From NCBI GenBank assembly GCA_963555825.3, contig CAUVXB020000001.1, positions 1,248,001 through 1,312,000 of the forward strand: a DNA stretch of 64,000 nt. Reading direction: 5' to 3'. A model generated the notes under the pieces. That model was not told the origin of the DNA and searched no databases. It saw only the letters and a program-made list of their open reading frames with translations. Below, in pieces: positions 4,286 to 62,217 of the stretch. This DNA comes from Alphaproteobacteria bacterium. GTDB taxonomy: Bacteria; Pseudomonadota; Alphaproteobacteria; JAAXGF01. A program made the translations under genes and the position numbers. Numbering within the stretch: the first letter of the stretch is position 1; each line of letters opens with the position of its first letter.

Positions 4286-5046
4286 CCGACACACCGCAAG
4301 TGCTGCTCGCCCACCACCTCAAGACGCTGAAGCTGCCGACCTTCCTGCGCGAGTACGACAAGATCGCCCGGCAGTGCGCCTCGGAAGGCGTCGATCACGT
4401 CCGCTACCTGTTGAGACTCGCCGAGCTCGAGCTGATCGACCGCGAGCGCCGCATGGTCGAGCGGCGCATCAAGGCGGCGCGCTTCCCCGTGGTCAAGAGC
4501 CTCGACAGCTTCGACTTCAAGGTCATCCCCTCGCTCAACAAGGCGCTGGTCCTGGAGCTGGCCCGCTGCGAGTACATCGAGCGCCGCGAGAACCTCATCG
4601 CGCTCGGCAACAGTGGGACCGGCAAGACCCACATCGCCCTCGGTCTCGGCCTGGCGGCCTGCCAGAAGGGCCTCTCGGTCGGCTTCATCACCGCCGCCGC
4701 GCTGGTCCACGAACTCATCGAGGCCCGCGATGACAAGCAGCTGCTGAGGTTCCAGAAGAAGCTCGCCACCTACAAGCTTCTGATCGTCGACGAACTCGGC
4801 TTCGTGCCGCTGTCGAAGACCGGCGCCGAGCTGTTGTTCGAGGTGTTCAGCCAACGCTACGAGCGGGGCTCGACCCTGGTCACCACCAATCTGCCCTTCG
4901 ACGAATGGACCGAGGTGTTCGGCTCCGAGCGCCTCACCGGCGCGCTCCTCGATCGCCTCACCCACCACGTCAACATCCTCGAGATGAACGGTGACAGCTA
5001 CAGGCTCAACCAGAGCCGCAGGCGTCAAACCCCGACTGCTAACTGA
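4282..5046 (+). CDS. istB: IS21 helper ATPase IstB
   Basis: Walker A GNSGTGKT, LLIVDELG, LLDRLTHH; ATGA overlap with istA. Confidence 0.95.
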   Translation: MTDTPQVLLAHHLKTLKLPTFLREYDKIARQCASEGVDHVRYLLRLAELELIDRERRMVERRIKAARFPVVKSLDSFDFKVIPSLNKALVLELARCEYIERRENLIALGNSGTGKTHIALGLGLAACQKGLSVGFITAAALVHELIEARDDKQLLRFQKKLATYKLLIVDELGFVPLSKTGAELLFEVFSQRYERGSTLVTTNLPFDEWTEVFGSERLTGALLDRLTHHVNILEMNGDSYRLNQSRRRQTPTAN

Positions 5047-55585: not shown

Positions 55586-56018
55586 TCAGGAGCGCGCCGG
55601 CAGGCCGAGCTTCACGCGGGCCTCGTCGGGGCTCAGCACCCGGGCGCCGAGGCGCTCGATGATGCCGACCGCCTTCTCGACCAGCTGGCCGTTCGACGCG
55701 AACACGCCGCGCTCGAGATAGAGGTTGTCCTCGAGCCCGACCCGGACGTTGCCGCCGAGCAGCACCGACTTGGCGACCATCGGCATCTGCATGCGCGAGA
55801 TGCCGAACAACGCCCAGACCGCGTCGTCGGGCAGCAGATCGCGCATCGCCAGCATGACTTGGGTTTCGGTCGGCGCACTGTGGCCGATGCCCAGGCACAG
55901 CTGGAACATCGGCGGGCCGTCGATCAGGCCGTCGTCGATGAGCTGACGCGCGAGCATGATCTGGCCGACGTCGAACACCTCGATCTCGGGTTTGACCCCG
56001 GCCGCCTGGATGCGCGAC
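55586..56018 (-). pseudogene. 3-keto-5-aminohexanoate cleavage (BKACE/DUF849) protein, 5' part removed by IS6
   Basis: KPEIEVFD, QLCLG, GNVRVGLEDN. Confidence 0.85.
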
Positions 56019-56824
56019 GGTGCTGTCACGGTAACTGGCTGGTGTCAGCTGCGGGTGGCGAGTAGCTTCCTGTTATGAACAAGATCAGCTACCGCCGACA
56101 TCGGTTTCCTGCAGAGATAATCCAGCGCGCCGTCTGGCTGTGTTTCCGGTTTCCGCTCAGTTACCGCGATGTGGAGGATCTGCTCGCTGAACGTGGTGTC
56201 GATGTTTCTTACGAGACGATACGGCGCTGGGCTTTAAAGTTTGGGCAGGCCTATGCCCGAAAACTGAGACAATCACGCCCTCGACCAGACGACCGGTGGC
56301 ACCTTGATGAGGTGTTTTCCTCCATCAACGGAAAACGGATGTATCTATGGCGGGCGGTGGACAGCGAGGGTGAGGTGCTGGATATCCTGGTTCAGTCCCG
56401 GAGGAACAAGAAAGCAGCACTCAAGCTGATGCGCAAACTGCTCAAGAAGCAGGGGTATGCGCCGAATAAGGTGGTGACCGATAAACTGCCATCTTACGGG
56501 GCAGCATTGCGTGATCTCAACATGACGGGGAAACACGTTACCGGCGGACGGAGCAACAATCGGGCGGAGAATTCGCACCTGCCGGTTCGACAACGAGAAC
56601 GCAGGATGCAGGGCTTCAAGTCATCAGGATCGGCGCAAAGGTTTCTCTCCACCCACGCCGCCATCTACAACACCTTCAATGTCCAACGTCATCTGATCAC
56701 TCGCAAGACAATGAGCCAATTCCGCGGTGACGCGATGAACACGTGGCGGACCGTGACCGCTGCTGCTTGAGCCGCTCAGTTCAGACGTTCAACTGCGACC
56801 TGCCTTCGTTAAGTTGACAGCACC
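56019..56824 (+). mobile_element. IS6-family IS, complete (transposase 56075-56770)
   Basis: GGTGCTGTCA...TGACAGCACC; no duplication; different genes truncated on each side. Confidence 0.95.
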
Positions 56825-57658
56825 CGTCACCGTACCCGATGCGCTCGCCACGTCATTCGGCGAAGCCGTTGATCCCGTACCGCTCGCTGAGGCCGACCAC
56901 GTTACGGTCGCTGGACCGGTGGCTGCACTGGACAGCGCGATCGTGAAGCTCACGTCGTCGCCTTCGTCGGCGGAACCTCCGGTAATCATCACCGCCGGTT
57001 TCCCGTCGTCGGTCACGGCGATGGTCACGTCCACTGTGTCCGTGCCCGACATGCTGTCCGTCACCCTGATCTTTACGGAGTAGCTTGCCTTGGTCTCGAA
57101 GTCGAGCGTGGCCTTGGTCTTGATCTGTCGCCTTGCCCCGTCGAACTCGAACGCGTCGGCGTCCGCGCCTTCCATCGTGTAGGTCAGGGTGTCCCCATCG
57201 TCGGCGTCCGTCGCGCTCGGGATGACCTCGCCGATGTCCGTGGCCCGCGCCGTGTTCTCGACGATCGTGCGCGTCAGCGTGTCGTCGGAGAACATTGGCG
57301 CTTCGGCCATCGCGGCCGGCGATGTCGCCACCGAGGCGAGCGCTATCGCGCCTGCGCCGATGCGCAGTGCATGCTTCGCTGCCCTCGCGCGTGCCCTCGC
57401 GAGCCATTCGCGGTTCGTTACCTTTATTGAGCTGTCGCGCGCATCGTCGGTCATGGCGCTGCAAGCGTGTTCCTCAACCATTTCGATTGCCTCTGTCTGT
57501 TGGTTCCCGGCTCCGAGCCGGGCGGTGTCGGGTCCGAAGGTTTGTTTCCTCGGCCGAGATTGCGTCTTCCTTCTGGTCTTTCGATCTGTCCTGTCGTGCG
57601 CTTCGCATGCTTGGAGCGCTTCCGACCCTGTCCTGTTTTCCGATCCTTCGTCCGCCAT
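56825..57658 (-). pseudogene. Cadherin/Calx-beta domain surface protein, N-terminal part, truncated by IS6
   Basis: ATDADDGDTLTY, LDFETKASYSV, ADEGDDVSFTIALS; hydrophobic signal-like segment. Confidence 0.8.
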
Positions 57659-57782
57659 TCCTGCCCTGTCGATCCCAGTTGCCTCTCACCCCGCGTCTAA
57701 TCGATTACCGTCCGCCTCTCACTTCACGCGTTCGCGGCGTCCGGCGCCAGTCATTGGGTGTAGGTCTCAAACTGACCGTTCT

Positions 57783-59471
57783 TCATGCCCGCCTTCGGGT
57801 CCGGCGTCGTTCGAGCATCGGCTGCCCGAATGCGTCGGTGCTCCCTGTGCAAGCGCTGTCGACGGTGCACCCGCACCGCCGTTGTACCGCTGTGCGCCCG
57901 TGGTCTCGCGCGCGGGCTTGGTTCTCCGCCCCCGCTTGACCGGCGCAGCGCTTCCTTGCCGTTCTCAGCTCGCCCCACAACGCGTTCTTCGCTGCTCCGT
58001 CGGTGAGTCCTTGCGCTTTCAGCGCGAGCCATCGCAGCGCGCGAGCGCGCAGGACTTGTCCTGCGTTCACGTCGGCGTTGGCCTTGTGCTCGCACGCCGT
58101 GCATTCGAACCGGCGTTTGTCGCGACTCTTTGCGTCGACGTGTCCGCATGCGGCACACGTCGTGCTGGAGTCCATCGCGGGAAGCTTCAGCACCGTGCCG
58201 CCACGCGCTTCGAGCGCTGCCTTCAGCGTGTCTTGCGTGAATCCCCACAGCGCTGAGCGGATGCTGCGGTTGAGCCCTCTCTTCGCTGCAACGCCCGCCC
58301 ACGCCCGTCCCCGGGCGCTTGCGCCCATGCCTGTGATGTTGAGGGATTCGAGACCGAGGACGTCAAACATCGCGGCGAAGTCTTTCGCCGCCTTGCGAAT
58401 CGCATCGCGGTCGCGTGACCGCATTGCCGCTTTCTCGCTACGGAGTTGTTCCAAGTGTTCATGCCATTGTCGCGAACCTTGGACGCACTTGTTCATCGCC
58501 CGTTGTGCGTCGAGGACGACGTCCATGCCCACTGTGTGGTCTGGCAACGTGATCGTTCGCCCGTTGTGCATGGTCAGGGTGTCGGCACACCCCATGTCGG
58601 CGCCGGCGACGAGAGGTGTCTGCCTTCGCCGTTTCGTTCGGGGTACGACATCGACGAGCACTGCCAGGTGGACTTCGACTCGCGTGCGCCCCCGACTCCC
58701 GTGTTTCACGCACACCTTCGCTGCGCGAAGGCGTGCTGCTTCGGGTAGTGGATTGTTCGCAACGACTTCGACTTCTCCCAGACCGACCAACCCGACGGTG
58801 TTCGCATCCACCCGCCGCGGCGGTGTGTCCCACACCACCGCGCAGCGTCCCTTCGTCTTCCTGCGTCGGAGCAGTTGTGTGCGCGCACCGTCGCCGGAGC
58901 GCTCGTCGCGCCACGTCGCTGCACTCTTTGGTGGTGCGCGGTTTTCCTTGACCGCTTTGCGCTTGTCCTTGACCGCTTTGCGCTTGTCCTCGATGTCGAG
59001 TCCGTCCCAGGCTCCAGCGTCCCAGTCCAGATGCTTTGACATCCACTTCTTCCAGGAGGCGTCTTCTCCGAGCACCCGCGCGACGCGCGCTCTCGTCGCG
59101 TCCTCATGAAGCTTCAGCGCGGTTCTCGCCTGTCCAACCGCAGGACGTGCGAGCACCACCGGCACGTTGCCCATCCACGGGGTCTCGCTTCGCCACTCGG
59201 TGAGCCGCCCGGACAGCCCGTCGGGATGCGCTGGACTCTTCTGCTTTGCCGGCACGCTTCCGCCTTGCGGCGCGATGTCGGCGATCGTCCGGTTGTAGAC
59301 CCCGCGCTGAACGTGCCGGCAACGCGTGAGCGCGGCGTCGAGCGCCAGCGTCCACTTTGCCCGGTAAATGCGGGTGCGCAGCACGGTTGGGGGGGCTCGA
59401 CACTCTGTCACCGCTTTGCCCTCACCTTCCCCTGTTTTTCCTTCAGGCTTCACGCTTTCAGTCAGTTGCAT
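57783..59471 (-). CDS. tnpB: TnpB-like RNA-guided endonuclease (562 aa; true start may be a little downstream)
   Basis: RuvC-I GADMG, RuvC-II GLESLNI, Zn finger CAACGH...CTAC, RuvC-III NADVNA. Confidence 0.85.
   Translation of the reverse strand: MQLTESVKPEGKTGEGEGKAVTECRAPPTVLRTRIYRAKWTLALDAALTRCRHVQRGVYNRTIADIAPQGGSVPAKQKSPAHPDGLSGRLTEWRSETPWMGNVPVVLARPAVGQARTALKLHEDATRARVARVLGEDASWKKWMSKHLDWDAGAWDGLDIEDKRKAVKDKRKAVKENRAPPKSAATWRDERSGDGARTQLLRRRKTKGRCAVVWDTPPRRVDANTVGLVGLGEVEVVANNPLPEAARLRAAKVCVKHGSRGRTRVEVHLAVLVDVVPRTKRRRQTPLVAGADMGCADTLTMHNGRTITLPDHTVGMDVVLDAQRAMNKCVQGSRQWHEHLEQLRSEKAAMRSRDRDAIRKAAKDFAAMFDVLGLESLNITGMGASARGRAWAGVAAKRGLNRSIRSALWGFTQDTLKAALEARGGTVLKLPAMDSSTTCAACGHVDAKSRDKRRFECTACEHKANADVNAGQVLRARALRWLALKAQGLTDGAAKNALWGELRTARKRCAGQAGAENQARARDHGRTAVQRRCGCTVDSACTGSTDAFGQPMLERRRTRRRA
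58945..58990 (-). repeat. 21-bp in-frame tandem duplication in tnpB
   Basis: Encodes DKRKAVK-DKRKAVK. Confidence 0.85.
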
Positions 59472-59594
59472 TGTCCCAACTTGTCAGTTCGAGAGCTACA
59501 CCCAATCGTTCACGAGAATCGCCGAACCACATGCTGCGAGTCGGCGAAGTCGGTGTAGTGCTTGGGGGCCAGCGCAAGGCCGCCTGCGCTACGG

Positions 59595-60380
59595 TTACTT
59601 GTCGCCTTTTTCAAGGTCGAGCTCATTCCAAGTCATCAATCGAACTTCGTCACGGCGCTGGCCGGTTAGAAAAAGCATACGAACGAGGCTACGTGCCGTT
59701 GGTGAGCAGGTGCTTGTGGCATCCCAAATTGCACGGATTTCATCGCGGGAAAGAAAGCGGTCCCGGCTGCGCTCCTTGAACCGCTTTTTCTTTCCCCGAT
59801 TGATGGAAGCGACCGGATTGACGTCTATCCATTCACGGTCCTCGACGGCCCAATTGCAGAACGCTTTGATCTGGCTGACGACGCGATTGACCTGGACCGT
59901 CAGCCCTTCGCCAGCGAGATCGTCCATAAGCTCTAGAACGTGTGCTCTGGTCAGATCCTGCAATGGAATGTTGCCAACCCGGCTAAGGACGTGTTTCTCG
60001 AATAGGCGATCGGTCTGTCGCCAGGACTTTTGGTGCTCCTTGCAATGCTCCTCGATGTAGGCTCGCGCAGCCTGCTCCACGGTGCGCTGTCGGCGTTGAT
60101 CCGTTTCCGCCTTCGCTTCGGGGTCAATGTCATGCTTGGCCAGATTTCCAATCTCAAGGGACTTTCACCGCGCTTCACTCAGCGTTATTGCGGGAAAGGT
60201 TCCGAGGCCGATGCGCTGGCGCTGGCCATTAAACCTATACCGACAATCCCAGGATTTTGCCGTCTCGGAAACGCGGAGCGTTAGGTTCCAGCCGTTCGGG
60301 TTGGTGTCGGCGTATTCAGCTCGCTCGCCACTGGCTGCCTTTGCTGTCTGACAGAACCGGTCCGTGAGATTCTTTTTCAT
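59595..60380 (-). pseudogene. P4-like tyrosine integrase, internal stop and C-terminal truncation
   Basis: Arm-binding YRFNG..RIGLGTFPAITLSEAR, TGA at 60165-60167, LTGQRRDEV; later catalytic residues absent. Confidence 0.85.
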
Positions 60381-60385
60381 CTGAA

Positions 60386-62045
60386 CCGACATTCCCCAGA
60401 TGACATCCAAATTCGCGGAAATCGTACCACGGCCCCATCTCCAAGGGAACTCTGTTCCCATTGCAGCGATCCGATGACATGATTTTGGTAATCGGCCAGC
60501 GCGTGGAAGGCCATTTGGTCGTTTCTCTTGCCATCCAGACACACCTCTCGTGTCGCAATCTCCTTGCCGTCGATTCCCTCGGCCTACGCCGGAGCGGGTC
60601 TTCGTCGTAGATCATCAATCAGGCTCAAGATTTTCTGGAACAAGCTTCTTGGGACTGCAACCTCGGCCAATTGAAATGTGACGTACCGGCCATGGCTGAC
60701 AACTTTCGCACCGATCTTGACCAGCTTCTCCCTCAGCGTCGTCAGCGACCATTGCTCCACGGCATCGGGCAACGCCAGGGTACGCATGAAGTTGCCGAGG
60801 TTATAGGCGAGTGCATGCAGCTGGAGCCGGACGGCATTGTTGCGTAACGAACGGCATGACAGCCGCGTCCACTTGATGGCGTTCTTGCCTTCCTTGATCC
60901 ATTGCTCGGCAGTGCCGCGCTGATTGTAGAACGCAACAACCCGCTCGGCAGGACGGCTCAGGTTGGTGACGCTTGAGCGGTGAAACCGATCAAGGCCGAC
61001 GCGGGGATACAGTTCCCCTGAGTGCCACTCCACCTTGGCGACGACCCGGCGGGGCTCCGTCCAGCTACCGGCCCGATAGCTGAAGTTCGCGTAATACCGA
61101 CGAACTTCCTTCGGCGGCCGACCGACGGGGCGCTTGAGCAGGTGCGCGATGCTGTCGTGCAGCACCTTGTTGGCCGGAAGCCGGATGGCGTACTTGAAGC
61201 CTTCCGCTTCCAGAAACTCATAAACCTCGGGCGAGGCGAAGGCGGCGTCACCACGGAAATAACGCCGGAGTGTCTTGTTCCGGTATCGAGCGACCACCGG
61301 GTCCAACACATCGCGCCATTCATGGGCGCTGTGCACGTTGCCCGGACGCAGGGCGCAACGCTCCAGATCGCCGAACTGGTTGAACACGAACAGCGGGTGA
61401 TAGCACGTGCAGCCGAAGTGACCGTTGTAGGCCGTGCCCTCCTGGTCACCGTAGGTCGGGCTGACGGAGCTGTCCATGTCGAGCACGATAATCTTCGGCG
61501 GCTTGCGCTCGTTAACCTGGTCGATCCAGATGCCCAAAAGGTCAGCGAGCGCGGCGAGGTTGTCATTGGTGGCGAGTAACTCCGTCTCGAACCGGCCCAT
61601 CTGGCTGGTCGATGCGCCGCCGCGCTCGACAGCCCTGCCGCCGACGATCCACCGCATCGCAGGATCGCGCCCCAGCCGGTCGGCGTCGTTCACGTCCTCG
61701 TACCCGGCGAGACGACCATAGACGGATTGGCGAAGGAGACCGATGATGCCGTGCCAACCGTTCTTGCCGGTCCGGCTGTCAGCAATAACGTCACCGGCCA
61801 GCGTGGTCAGGCCGAGGGCTTCGTCCAGTTCACGATAGGCGAGCAGACCAGCGTCTGACGTGATCCGCGAACCGTGGAACTCGAACTTCAGTCTTCGGTC
61901 GAAAAACGCCCGCAGAAGCCCCCGATCCGACTCACCCTCCAGGTTCCGCATTCGACCCACCCTCCGTCTGATCTAATCCACTGATTCTTATACAGGAATC
62001 AGACGGAAACCGCATCAGATGGATCGGTCACTTGGGGAATGCGGG
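60386..62045 (-). mobile_element. IS1380-family IS (transposase 60584-61960)
   Basis: IRL CCCGCATTCCCC, IRR CCGACATTCCCC; open 458-aa ORF. Confidence 0.93.
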
Positions 62046-62217
62046 TTTAGAGGGCCTCATGGTGGCCAGCGCGCTGTGATTGTCGGCGTATCCGATGAGG
62101 CGTAACAATCACCTCTATAGACGCGCGGTGGCAGTTGTGGGTAGATTTGTCGGTTCAGGTGAACGGTTCCGGCTAAGGAGCCACGTCTACAAGAATAACC
62201 GAACTGGGAGACATCGA

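Follow-up and report, generated by a model that had tools for sequence, protein, structure and literature searches.

Prokaryotic TnpBs have been described in DDE transposons, with inverted terminal repeats in all six DDE-associated branches (Altae-Tran et al., 2023; PMC10691335). According to that account, the 3´ end of the TnpB is as a rule no more than 250 bp away from the end of the transposon, and mobilization in trans is presumed for solo TnpBs that share these ends. IS605-type elements are described as elements without terminal inverted repeats (PMC3119063), and the ends of IS607 are likewise described without them (PMC9956272). For the Fanzor1 TIR transposons, Yoon et al. (2023; PMC10711439) predict a guide-RNA scaffold that includes the repeat and the duplication.

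The locus studied here lies in a 64,000-nt stretch of DNA from an Alphaproteobacteria bacterium, the whole of which is called the window. As in the DDE-associated TnpBs of PMC10691335, a prokaryotic TnpB is found as a solo copy without transposase between symmetrical ends, and its stop codon (57783–57785) is only 6 nt away from the right repeat arm, compared with the ~250 bp given in that paper. In contrast to those branches, which are compared here by their published description, neither a DDE partner nor an autonomous relative was found in our searches. ISDra2 TnpB (an IS1341-type solo element of IS200/IS605; PDB codes: 8h1j, 8exa) shares the fold and the catalytic motifs, and IS1341-type elements also resemble the locus in a guide-RNA region (putative here) that overlaps the 3´ end of the gene and in having no clear target duplication. 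However, the protein described here is longer by ~150 residues, and the element ends in inverted repeats instead of subterminal hairpins at both ends. The likeness to the IS607-family TnpBs consists of a weak NCBIfam match (46.4 bits), whereas the element carries an inverted repeat and no serine recombinase. As described for Fanzor1 in eukaryotic and viral TIR transposons, a solo nuclease is enclosed by terminal inverted repeats, and the right arm is located at the end of a conserved module, as the Fanzor1 prediction would have it; unlike Fanzor1, the host is bacterial and the RuvC arrangement is canonical, and the likeness noted here is one of arrangement. A claim that the arrangement is new does not stand, as TnpBs with inverted terminal repeats, solo copies included, already appear in PMC10691335. 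The element belongs to a rare family and fits the kind of transposon described there in 2023. Because the link between TnpB and repeat-ended transposons has been published, the locus would leave the understanding of TnpB biology unchanged.

The inverted repeat is real and beyond chance. Its core arms (57755–57776 and 59483–59504) are complementary at 20 of 22 bases, and because the flanking AT is itself palindromic, the repeat grows from 22 to 24 nt (57753–57776 and 59483–59506, 22/24 complementary). In one scoring routine the repeat in the window reaches 18, compared with a maximum of 13 in 200 shuffles. The repeats, their positions and the enclosed 562-aa ORF are confirmed as first described. 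The same routine gives at most 12 at the 32 nearest non-clade TnpB loci, and such a repeat is absent from all of these 32 ordinary loci. Within the 64,000 nt of the window, a degenerate form of the 22-mer matches only the two arms (0 matches in 100 shuffles). The preliminary description proposed a genome search for further copies; across the 6.04-Mb genome, the pattern returned the two arms of the element and nothing else. The ATG (59469–59471) is separated from the left arm by 11 nt, and both this gap and that at the stop codon agree with the distances first given. No second gene, neither a transposase nor a serine recombinase, appears within the element in the ORF list, as had been noted. 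No direct repeat of at least 3 nt was found at sensible boundaries. The proposed 2-bp target duplication stands insofar as AT is present on both flanks, whereas this AT/AT is equally the palindromic extension of the repeat and the two readings are indistinguishable. The features are summarized in Table 1.

Table 1. Positions of the features of the element in the window.
Feature	Position	Strand	Remarks
Whole element	57753–59506	.	1754 bp, bounded by the inverted repeat; sole copy in the genome (own-genome DNA search)
Left-end repeat arm	59483–59506	.	Upstream of the gene, 11 nt before the ATG
tnpB-like gene	57783–59471	-	562 aa, fills the 1754-bp element
Departure of the ORF from the usual frame of the clade	57923–57940	-	One-base shift, from the tail comparison
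Conserved 3´ nucleic-acid module, putative omegaRNA scaffold	57753–57922	-	Overlaps the end of the ORF
Hairpin within the module	57860–57881	-	9 bp and a 4-nt loop; folding and compensatory changes
Right-end repeat arm	57753–57776	.	Holds the stop codon of the usual reading frame of the clade
Putative guide-supplying flank	57735–57752	-	From the way in which TnpB elements work

The protein is a divergent TnpB-type nuclease, as judged by its motifs and fold. It passes the cut-off of Pfam PF07282 (46.1 bits, cut-off 26.3), while NCBIfam NF040570 (guided_TnpB; 86.9 bits, cut-off 100) and PF01385 (20.2 bits, cut-off 30.5) match below theirs. The RuvC-I, RuvC-II and RuvC-III residues D292, E375 and D467 appear in the canonical order; in a set of 26 clade sequences, D292 never varies, and the conservation of E375 and D467 is 90% or higher. 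A zinc finger (C439-C442...C457-C460) is located between RuvC-II and RuvC-III. In a profile search against the PDB, the motifs of the RuvC domain and the zinc finger align with those of the solved TnpBs, in line with the three acidic residues and the finger that the preliminary description had named. The structure model has a pLDDT of 77.8, with values below 50 in the tail (residues 512–562). Its top Foldseek matches are ISDra2 TnpB (8h1j) and ISFba1 TnpB (8iaz) (E 9.5e-15; TM by target 0.61 and 0.58), and the Fanzor2 structure 9b0l ranks 14th among the fold matches. A promoter scan returned no promoter.

The ~550-aa TnpBs related to this protein form a distinct clade by sequence comparison. 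One search returned 43 clusters at E ≤ 7e-72, followed by the next matches at E ~ 4e-20; a wider count includes 183 representatives at E ≤ 1e-30. Nearly all of the members come from ENA assemblies. The 562-aa form with the shifted frame recurs in P0122 (identical to the window protein), P0123 and P0134, which derive from several assemblies. S-[VI]-stop closes 62 of the 106 clade proteins having a C-terminus, which places the stop within the right arm. The read-through ORFs of relatives spell the remaining right arm up to ...CTACACCCA, after which the sequence differs among the window, P0013/P0150/P0154, P0012, P0041, P0042, P0180 and P0192. The 3´ end in the relatives halts at the same bases beside at least 8 different flanks, and the comparison supports a family whose members entered many different sites while their 3´ terminus, which ends in CA, stayed fixed. 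In P0146 and P0147, parts of a further copy come after ...CTACACCCA, a sign of nested insertions. P0180 derives from an internal deletion and retains the tail. From the two nested insertions and the deletion derivative it follows that the family has moved. A contig of 320,087 nt is given for each of the three paralogues P0026, P0200 and P0201.

The 3´ part of the gene was initially taken for a low-complexity tail. Instead, it is a conserved module in which the ORF of this copy is shifted by one base. The family consensus tail is spelled by the untranslated frame of the window, with the window ORF one base off from ~57923 onwards, and P0148, P0152, P0016 and P0039 read the tail in other frames. 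On this comparison, conservation of the last ~170 nt is at the level of the nucleic acid and not of the protein. A blind helix scan on back-translated tails yields one sound hairpin, the six tested pairs of which are all compatible in 46/46 tails. Compensatory changes, as deduced from the fixed codon positions in the tails of relatives, take one pair through G-C, C-G, U-A and G.U and another through G-C and A-U. Folding of 57840–57960 gives z = -2.36 (3/200 shuffles as good), while the RNA fold of the whole tail (57735–58010) is no better than the shuffles (z = -0.43). A longer 'helix' from the same scan was rejected because the bases of the window do not form it. An apparent pairing between the right arm and bases ~30 nt upstream of it was also discarded, as it is not conserved in relatives when the tail alignment is inspected by eye. 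The ~170-nt module fits an omegaRNA whose scaffold would end in the right repeat. Of the omegaRNA that had been proposed at the 3´ end, the RNA-gene-like behavior of these ~170 nt up to the repeat bears out one part, whereas Rfam gives 0 matches at E ≤ 1. Contigs from RNA libraries (runs of two studies), which may include DNA, are at least 99% alike over 57745–58237, 58891–59950 and 59239–59589. Such cover is absent over 57567–57744 and scarce over 58546–58890, and its absence proves nothing.

We consider the chances slightly better than even that the locus represents a distinct TnpB lineage and is a solo, non-autonomous transposon, with inverted-repeat ends and a putative omegaRNA, that is mobilized in trans. 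The gene, with its RuvC site intact, would encode an RNA-guided DNA nuclease. The last ~170 nt would provide the guide-RNA scaffold, overlapping the end of the ORF and ending in the right repeat, and the guide would be read from the DNA just outside this repeat. A transposase supplied in trans most likely binds at the two repeats. By analogy with TnpB elements already studied, the nuclease would cleave the donor site left empty by excision, and recombination would then restore the element. If this reading is true, a compact and well-delimited bacterial TnpB travels in a repeat-ended non-autonomous element, and the scaffold of the guide RNA ends in its right terminal repeat, which thus has two roles, as proposed for the eukaryotic Fanzor1 elements. 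The points of interest are the identity of the transposase that moves the element and a possible double reading of the terminal repeat, by the transposase as DNA and by TnpB as RNA.

The preliminary description had proposed a TIR transposon mobilized in trans. The symmetrical ends and the lack of a transposase inside the element agree with this proposal, whereas the partner DDE transposase was not found: a transposase with the same repeats appeared neither in the own genome nor in 400 genomes of the class. These 400 genomes gave one lone 20/22 match to the repeat, the number also given by a control pattern. At up to 6 mismatches the repeat occurs at 0/164 collected loci, and at up to 7 mismatches a later locus collection contains only the lone G352 site. 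The ORFs upstream of the 7 nearest non-clade TnpB loci (10 proteins) have no transposase domain, which is uninformative either way. The collections searched gave no DNA of a close relative of the protein. Among genome contigs, 90 of the 177 candidate stretches are relatives (the best is 40% identical over residues 286–479), and among JGI metagenome contigs 86 of 182 are; both sets contain 0 clade members. The clade profile returned 0/13 in viral contigs. Two profiles of more distant ~550-aa members returned 1 and 14 viral loci, all of them ordinary 372–430-aa TnpBs with repeat scores of 10 or less. None of 2142 plasmid records (tblastn) covers at least 80% of the query. A search of 60 relatives gave 1 weak match, and 18 of 400 genomes of the phylum have matches, which are confined to the C-terminal half. 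As the searches of species-representative genomes, of plasmids and of viral contigs gave no member of the ~550-aa clade, the clade adds diversity to the programmable nucleases.

An ordinary IS1341-type solo TnpB (IS200/IS605 or IS607), moved by a Y1 or serine TnpA and bearing a repeat without a role in transposition, is an unlikely explanation, albeit the best placed of the alternatives. The majority of TnpBs fall in the IS200/IS605 and IS607 families, and the protein weakly matches IS200_TnpB (49.7 bits) as well as IS607_TnpB. Three Y1_Tnp hits are present in the genome, the nearest 18 kb off and none inside the element. The conserved hairpin close to the right end might act as a signal in single-stranded DNA, as hairpins do at IS605 ends, and a clear target duplication is absent, as in IS605. 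However, this hairpin is situated ~105–130 nt inside the right terminus and has no counterpart at the left end, where the DNA fold of 59390–59520 shows no hairpin (z = +1.46). The IS605-type and IS607 ends described in the sources above have no inverted repeats, and 0/32 of the nearest ordinary TnpB loci have such a repeat. The four Resolvase hits in the genome are two ~600-aa frames, a 211-aa frame with TGA and a fragment, and no small IS607-type serine recombinase is evident among them. The earlier view that the ends are unlike the IS605 and IS607 types is upheld by the terminal inverted repeat and the hairpin-free left end.

A somewhat smaller likelihood attaches to a left arm that is not a transposase site: either a rearranged, inverted partial copy of the right module, or a sequence with an RNA-level role, in which base pairing between the 5´ leader of the tnpB mRNA and the omegaRNA scaffold at its 3´ end would influence expression or processing. 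The arm lies just before the start codon, inside the presumed leader, and the searches gave no partner transposase. Copying of right-end pieces does occur: P0147 has a second tail directly after the first, and at locus L030 in a Thalassobaculaceae MAG, which belongs to a distant family of elements, 85 nt of the right end stand inverted 1.6 kb upstream. Nested insertions are, however, the simpler account of P0146 and P0147. The DNA evidence for the left repeat comes from the window, and among the relatives from P0014 (57% identity), in part and through its protein reading. The N-terminally extended ORF of P0014 spells 'LVALTLT' where the window has 'GVALELT', in the same reading across the inner left arm, while the outermost ~6 nt seem to be unmatched. 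The presence of the inner arm at the matching place upstream of the start argues that the left arm is integral to the element.

We give little weight to a decaying or domesticated relic without activity of its own, which would concern the present state of this copy rather than the kind of element and overlaps with the other readings. The element is a single copy, a DNA run bridges both of its boundaries at the same locus, the tail is frame-shifted, and the copy sits among IS copies and a broken integrase. In contrast, the 562-aa frame is open with all the catalytic and zinc residues present, the gene is covered by RNA-library contigs, and the shifted tail recurs in other lineages, the unshifted tail looking non-protein anyway. 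From the single copy, the unchanged locus in the DNA run and the shifted tail, the copy in this genome may therefore be inert.

Least probable of all is a lineage without any cognate transposase. Its symmetrical ends, one of them the 3´ end of the guide-RNA scaffold, would then serve the TnpB-omegaRNA complex directly or be recognized by the host, and a nuclease-only element that spreads alone would account for the nested insertions, the deletion derivatives and the presence of several copies on one contig in the relatives. In a milder form of this idea, the left arm would allow the omegaRNA to pair with the leader of tnpB and thereby to control its own production.

The IS copies that neighbor the element have terminal repeats that differ from its own. 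A comparison of filled and empty sites had been suggested, and no empty site was found among 30 relatives. Apart from an IS end, nothing homologous to the left flank was found, and the right flank matches the integrase genes of G001 only from window position 59602 onwards, so these flanks provide no filled-versus-empty pair. In run X16, a joint that skips 59296–59568 was disregarded because it has just 21 letters on one side. One X16 contig is shared with the window from 59500 on and carries unrelated sequence before this point, which is absent from the own genome at up to 4 mismatches.

A TnpB-type ORF lies between terminal inverted repeats, as the preliminary description observed. The segment ends, 57753-57776 (right arm) and 59483-59506 (left arm), form an inverted repeat in which 22 of 24 bases can pair, and the 22-nt repeat core reported earlier at 20/22 is correct, as are its distances of 6 nt from the stop codon and 11 nt from the ATG. 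In a single scoring routine, the repeat scores 18 versus a maximum of 13 among 200 shuffles; the 32 nearest ordinary TnpB loci score at most 12, not above their own shuffles. Beyond the two arms, the degenerate 22-mer is matched nowhere in the window or the rest of the 6.04-Mb genome, and 100 shuffles gave 0 matches. AT is present at both flanks, as stated when a possible 2-bp duplication was suggested, but this dinucleotide is palindromic, so that two extra repeat positions explain it equally well, and no direct repeat as long as 3 nt can be fitted to the element boundaries.

Features of the element, its surroundings and matching RNA-library contigs
Feature	Coordinates	Strand	Remarks
tnpB-like ORF	57783-59471	minus	562 aa; sole sizeable gene of the 1754-bp segment
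Hairpin	57860-57881		9 bp with 4-nt loop; encodes the best-conserved tail peptide, N-G-G-A-G-A-P-S
Broken tyrosine integrase	59595-60542	minus	two frames
Arm-DNA-binding domain of broken integrase	60165-60542	minus	
Integrase central domain	59595-60080	minus	with only the first ~54 catalytic-domain positions
IS with 16-nt terminal inverted repeat	60376-62163		repeat 60376-60391 / 62148-62163, score 13
DDE_Tnp_1_4 transposase of this IS	60584-61960	minus	458 aa
IS6-type element	56019-56824		10-nt terminal repeat; DDE_Tnp_IS240 transposase at 56075-56770
RNA-library contigs, run X17	57745-58237		at least 99% alike
RNA-library contig, run X17	58891-59950		at least 99% alike; across left boundary
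RNA-library contigs, run X18	58748-59494		at least 99% alike; three overlapping contigs
RNA-library contig, run X20	59239-59589		at least 99% alike; different study, labelled sponge metagenome

The protein matches the Pfam Cas12f1-like TNB zinc-ribbon domain with 46.1 bits (cut-off 26.3), while the Pfam OrfB_IS605 match is below threshold and the NCBIfam guided_TnpB score of 86.9 bits does not reach its cut-off of 100. Across 26 aligned clade members, the RuvC acidic residues noticed initially (D292, E375 and D467) and the four cysteines vary little or not at all, and they align with the matching motifs of solved TnpBs in a profile search of PDB sequences. The AlphaFold model (pLDDT 77.8) is closest in fold to ISDra2 TnpB and ISFba1 TnpB (E 9.5e-15), with Cas12f and a mimivirus Fanzor2 as lower-ranked matches. 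Its domain matches, conserved motifs and predicted fold identify the protein as a divergent TnpB; its active site is canonical, and it is ~150 residues longer than the classical TnpB enzymes. A 21-nt tandem duplication within tnpB (58933-58983) lengthens the protein by seven residues (K-R-K-A-V-K-D/E twice); among the 26 aligned members it is limited to the window's cluster, and the relative P0179 carries a variant version of the region.

In a word-indexed protein search, 43 clusters reached E <= 7e-72, with identities of 37-72% and lengths of mostly 500-580 aa; almost all come from ENA assemblies, and a gap separates them from ordinary ~395-aa TnpBs at E ~ 4e-20. When 1.84 billion representatives were scanned in full with an HMM, 183 proteins scored E <= 1e-30, including additional full-length ~550-aa members. 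No clade member was found in species-representative genomes, JGI metagenome contigs, viral contigs or plasmids, or among 60 relatives or 400 genomes of the phylum; the own genome contains exactly one TnpB-type gene.

The features of the relatives were read from their protein sequences. In some of them, read-through ORFs spell the right arm up to ...CTACACCCA and then diverge, with differing flanks in the window (AT GAC...), P0013/P0150/P0153/P0154, P0012, P0041, P0042, P0180 and P0192. The right boundary is thus the CA named in the preliminary description, since the relatives' arms end there and their flanks vary. In P0146 another tnpB copy, from codon 7 onward, follows the right arm, and in P0147 the tail comes a second time after it; nested insertions in the same orientation are the simplest reading of both. 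P0180 is evidently an internal-deletion derivative, because residues ~85-127 are joined straight to the tail, and P0026, P0200 and P0201 are three paralogues of at least 90% identity, each listed on a 320,087-nt contig. The fixed right terminus at differing flanks, the nested insertions, the deletion derivative and the paralogues show that the TnpB family of this element has moved. At the left end, the N-terminal extension of P0014 (57% identical) reads ...C-L-V-A-L-T-L-T... versus L-G-V-A-L-E-L-T in the matching frame of the window's arm; this single relative supports the inner left arm as an integral feature of the element, and the outermost ~6 nt apparently have no match in it. Leaders beginning M-L-S/K-E in several clusters may overlap the arm and are too short to count.

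TnpB makes its omegaRNA (guide RNA) by processing its own mRNA. Among 106 clade proteins having a C-terminus, 62 end in ...S-[VI]-stop. The window carries these codons in a different frame from the ORF, with the stop within the right arm; near 57923 a one-base shift takes the ORF out of the family frame, and the untranslated frame still encodes the consensus tail. This shift is not an assembly error, because P0122 has the identical 562-aa form and other assemblies show it again in P0123 and P0134. Alternative-frame tails also occur in P0148, P0152, P0016 and P0039, members of other clusters, and the modelled tail is disordered (pLDDT < 50 for residues 512-562). Because the amino acid fixes the first and second codon positions, base pairs of the hairpin can be read from proteins. 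One pair appears across relatives as G-C (G...P), C-G (A...A), U-A (V...T) and G.U (G...S), and a second changes from G-C to A-U (A/A to K/V). Each of the 46 distinct tails examined is compatible with all six testable pairs, but the tails are related sequences and represent few events, not 46 independent ones; the four pair types at a single position require at least three changes. Judged from sequence, the tail behaves as a structured RNA or single-stranded DNA, not as a protein segment, and by analogy with other TnpB elements we read it as a putative omegaRNA scaffold terminating in the right arm. In two distant ~580-aa members, P0230 and P0235, the ORFs run ~35 residues beyond the usual S-I end; their extensions are alike (...P-L-T-P-x-x-G-A-K-L-x-C-R-I-H-G-E-L...), so in this sub-group conservation continues past the normal end.

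An IS605- or IS607-type origin is poorly compatible with these ends. The left end lacks a hairpin (z = +1.46), the conserved hairpin lies ~105-130 nt from the right end, and published accounts describe IS605-type elements as without terminal inverted repeats (PMC3119063) and IS607 ends as without inverted repeats (PMC9956272). No transposase with the element's repeats was found in the own genome, where the repeat occurs solely at the element, and the ends of the neighbouring IS6-type and DDE_Tnp_1_4-type elements are unrelated to it. The own genome has three Y1_Tnp and four Resolvase matches, none of which adjoins the element or is IS607-like by size. Across 400 class genomes, a lone 20/22 site without a partner was found in G352, which is at chance level because a reversed control pattern also gave one match. 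This intergenic site (L177:1500-1522; G352:C5:86035-86056) matches at 21/24 with the neighbouring bases and has no inverted partner within 1.5 kb.

TnpB reportedly cuts the emptied donor site, so that the element is retained (a finding attributed to Meers et al.). Altae-Tran et al. 2023 (PMC10691335) describe DDE-associated TnpBs with inverted terminal repeats in all six branches, the TnpB 3' end usually lying <=250 bp from the transposon end, and solo TnpBs with almost the same ends as elements that carry a transposase, a resemblance that points to mobilisation in trans. In Yoon et al. 2023 (PMC10711439), the terminal repeat and duplication of Fanzor1 elements are predicted to be part of the guide-RNA scaffold. 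With these precedents, the proposal of an RNA-guided nuclease recruited to a non-autonomous repeat-ended transposon is reasonable but not new as a concept, and as an interpretation of this locus it is partly supported. At moderate confidence, the most likely reading is a non-autonomous TnpB element with repeat ends, stranded here and belonging to a rare clade, whose omegaRNA scaffold would end in the right repeat and which would be moved in trans by a yet-unfound transposase.

The stretch is present, in whole or in part, in 20 of the 24 run rows listed, from six studies, and contig coverage was examined in four runs (X16, X17, X18 and X20). DNA contigs of X16 span both element boundaries (57559-57815 and 59366-59950) and therefore represent the same locus. 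The RNA-library contigs are compatible with transcription of the element and do not prove it, as such libraries may hold DNA and contigs reveal neither ends nor strand. Another X16 DNA contig is shared from 59500 rightwards (the element's last 7 nt and the flank) and is preceded by 255 unrelated letters absent from the own genome, which could be another arrangement of the flank in a related organism.

DNA homology of the broken integrase to intact-looking integrase genes of the related genome G001 ends at 59602, which leaves 59507-59601, next to the element, outside the matched part. The end of the DDE_Tnp_1_4 IS (60378-60583) occurs at 14 further places in the genome; the right end of the IS6-type element occurs at four further places and at seven in the relative G018. 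The adjoining BKACE gene (55586-56029) was probably truncated by the IS6-type element, because it matches only positions 134-274 of a 274-position profile. In a Thalassobaculaceae MAG, the 3' part of a distantly related tnpB, 470-550 nt long, recurs as a fragment at 15 or more loci (L030-L052 and others) with 90-99% identity. At L030, an 85-nt piece of the fragment end is inverted 1.6 kb upstream (2692-2776 and 4385-4469; 87% complementary), and the inverted copies enclose the tnpB fragment and, judged by eye, a PIN-type toxin-antitoxin-like pair.
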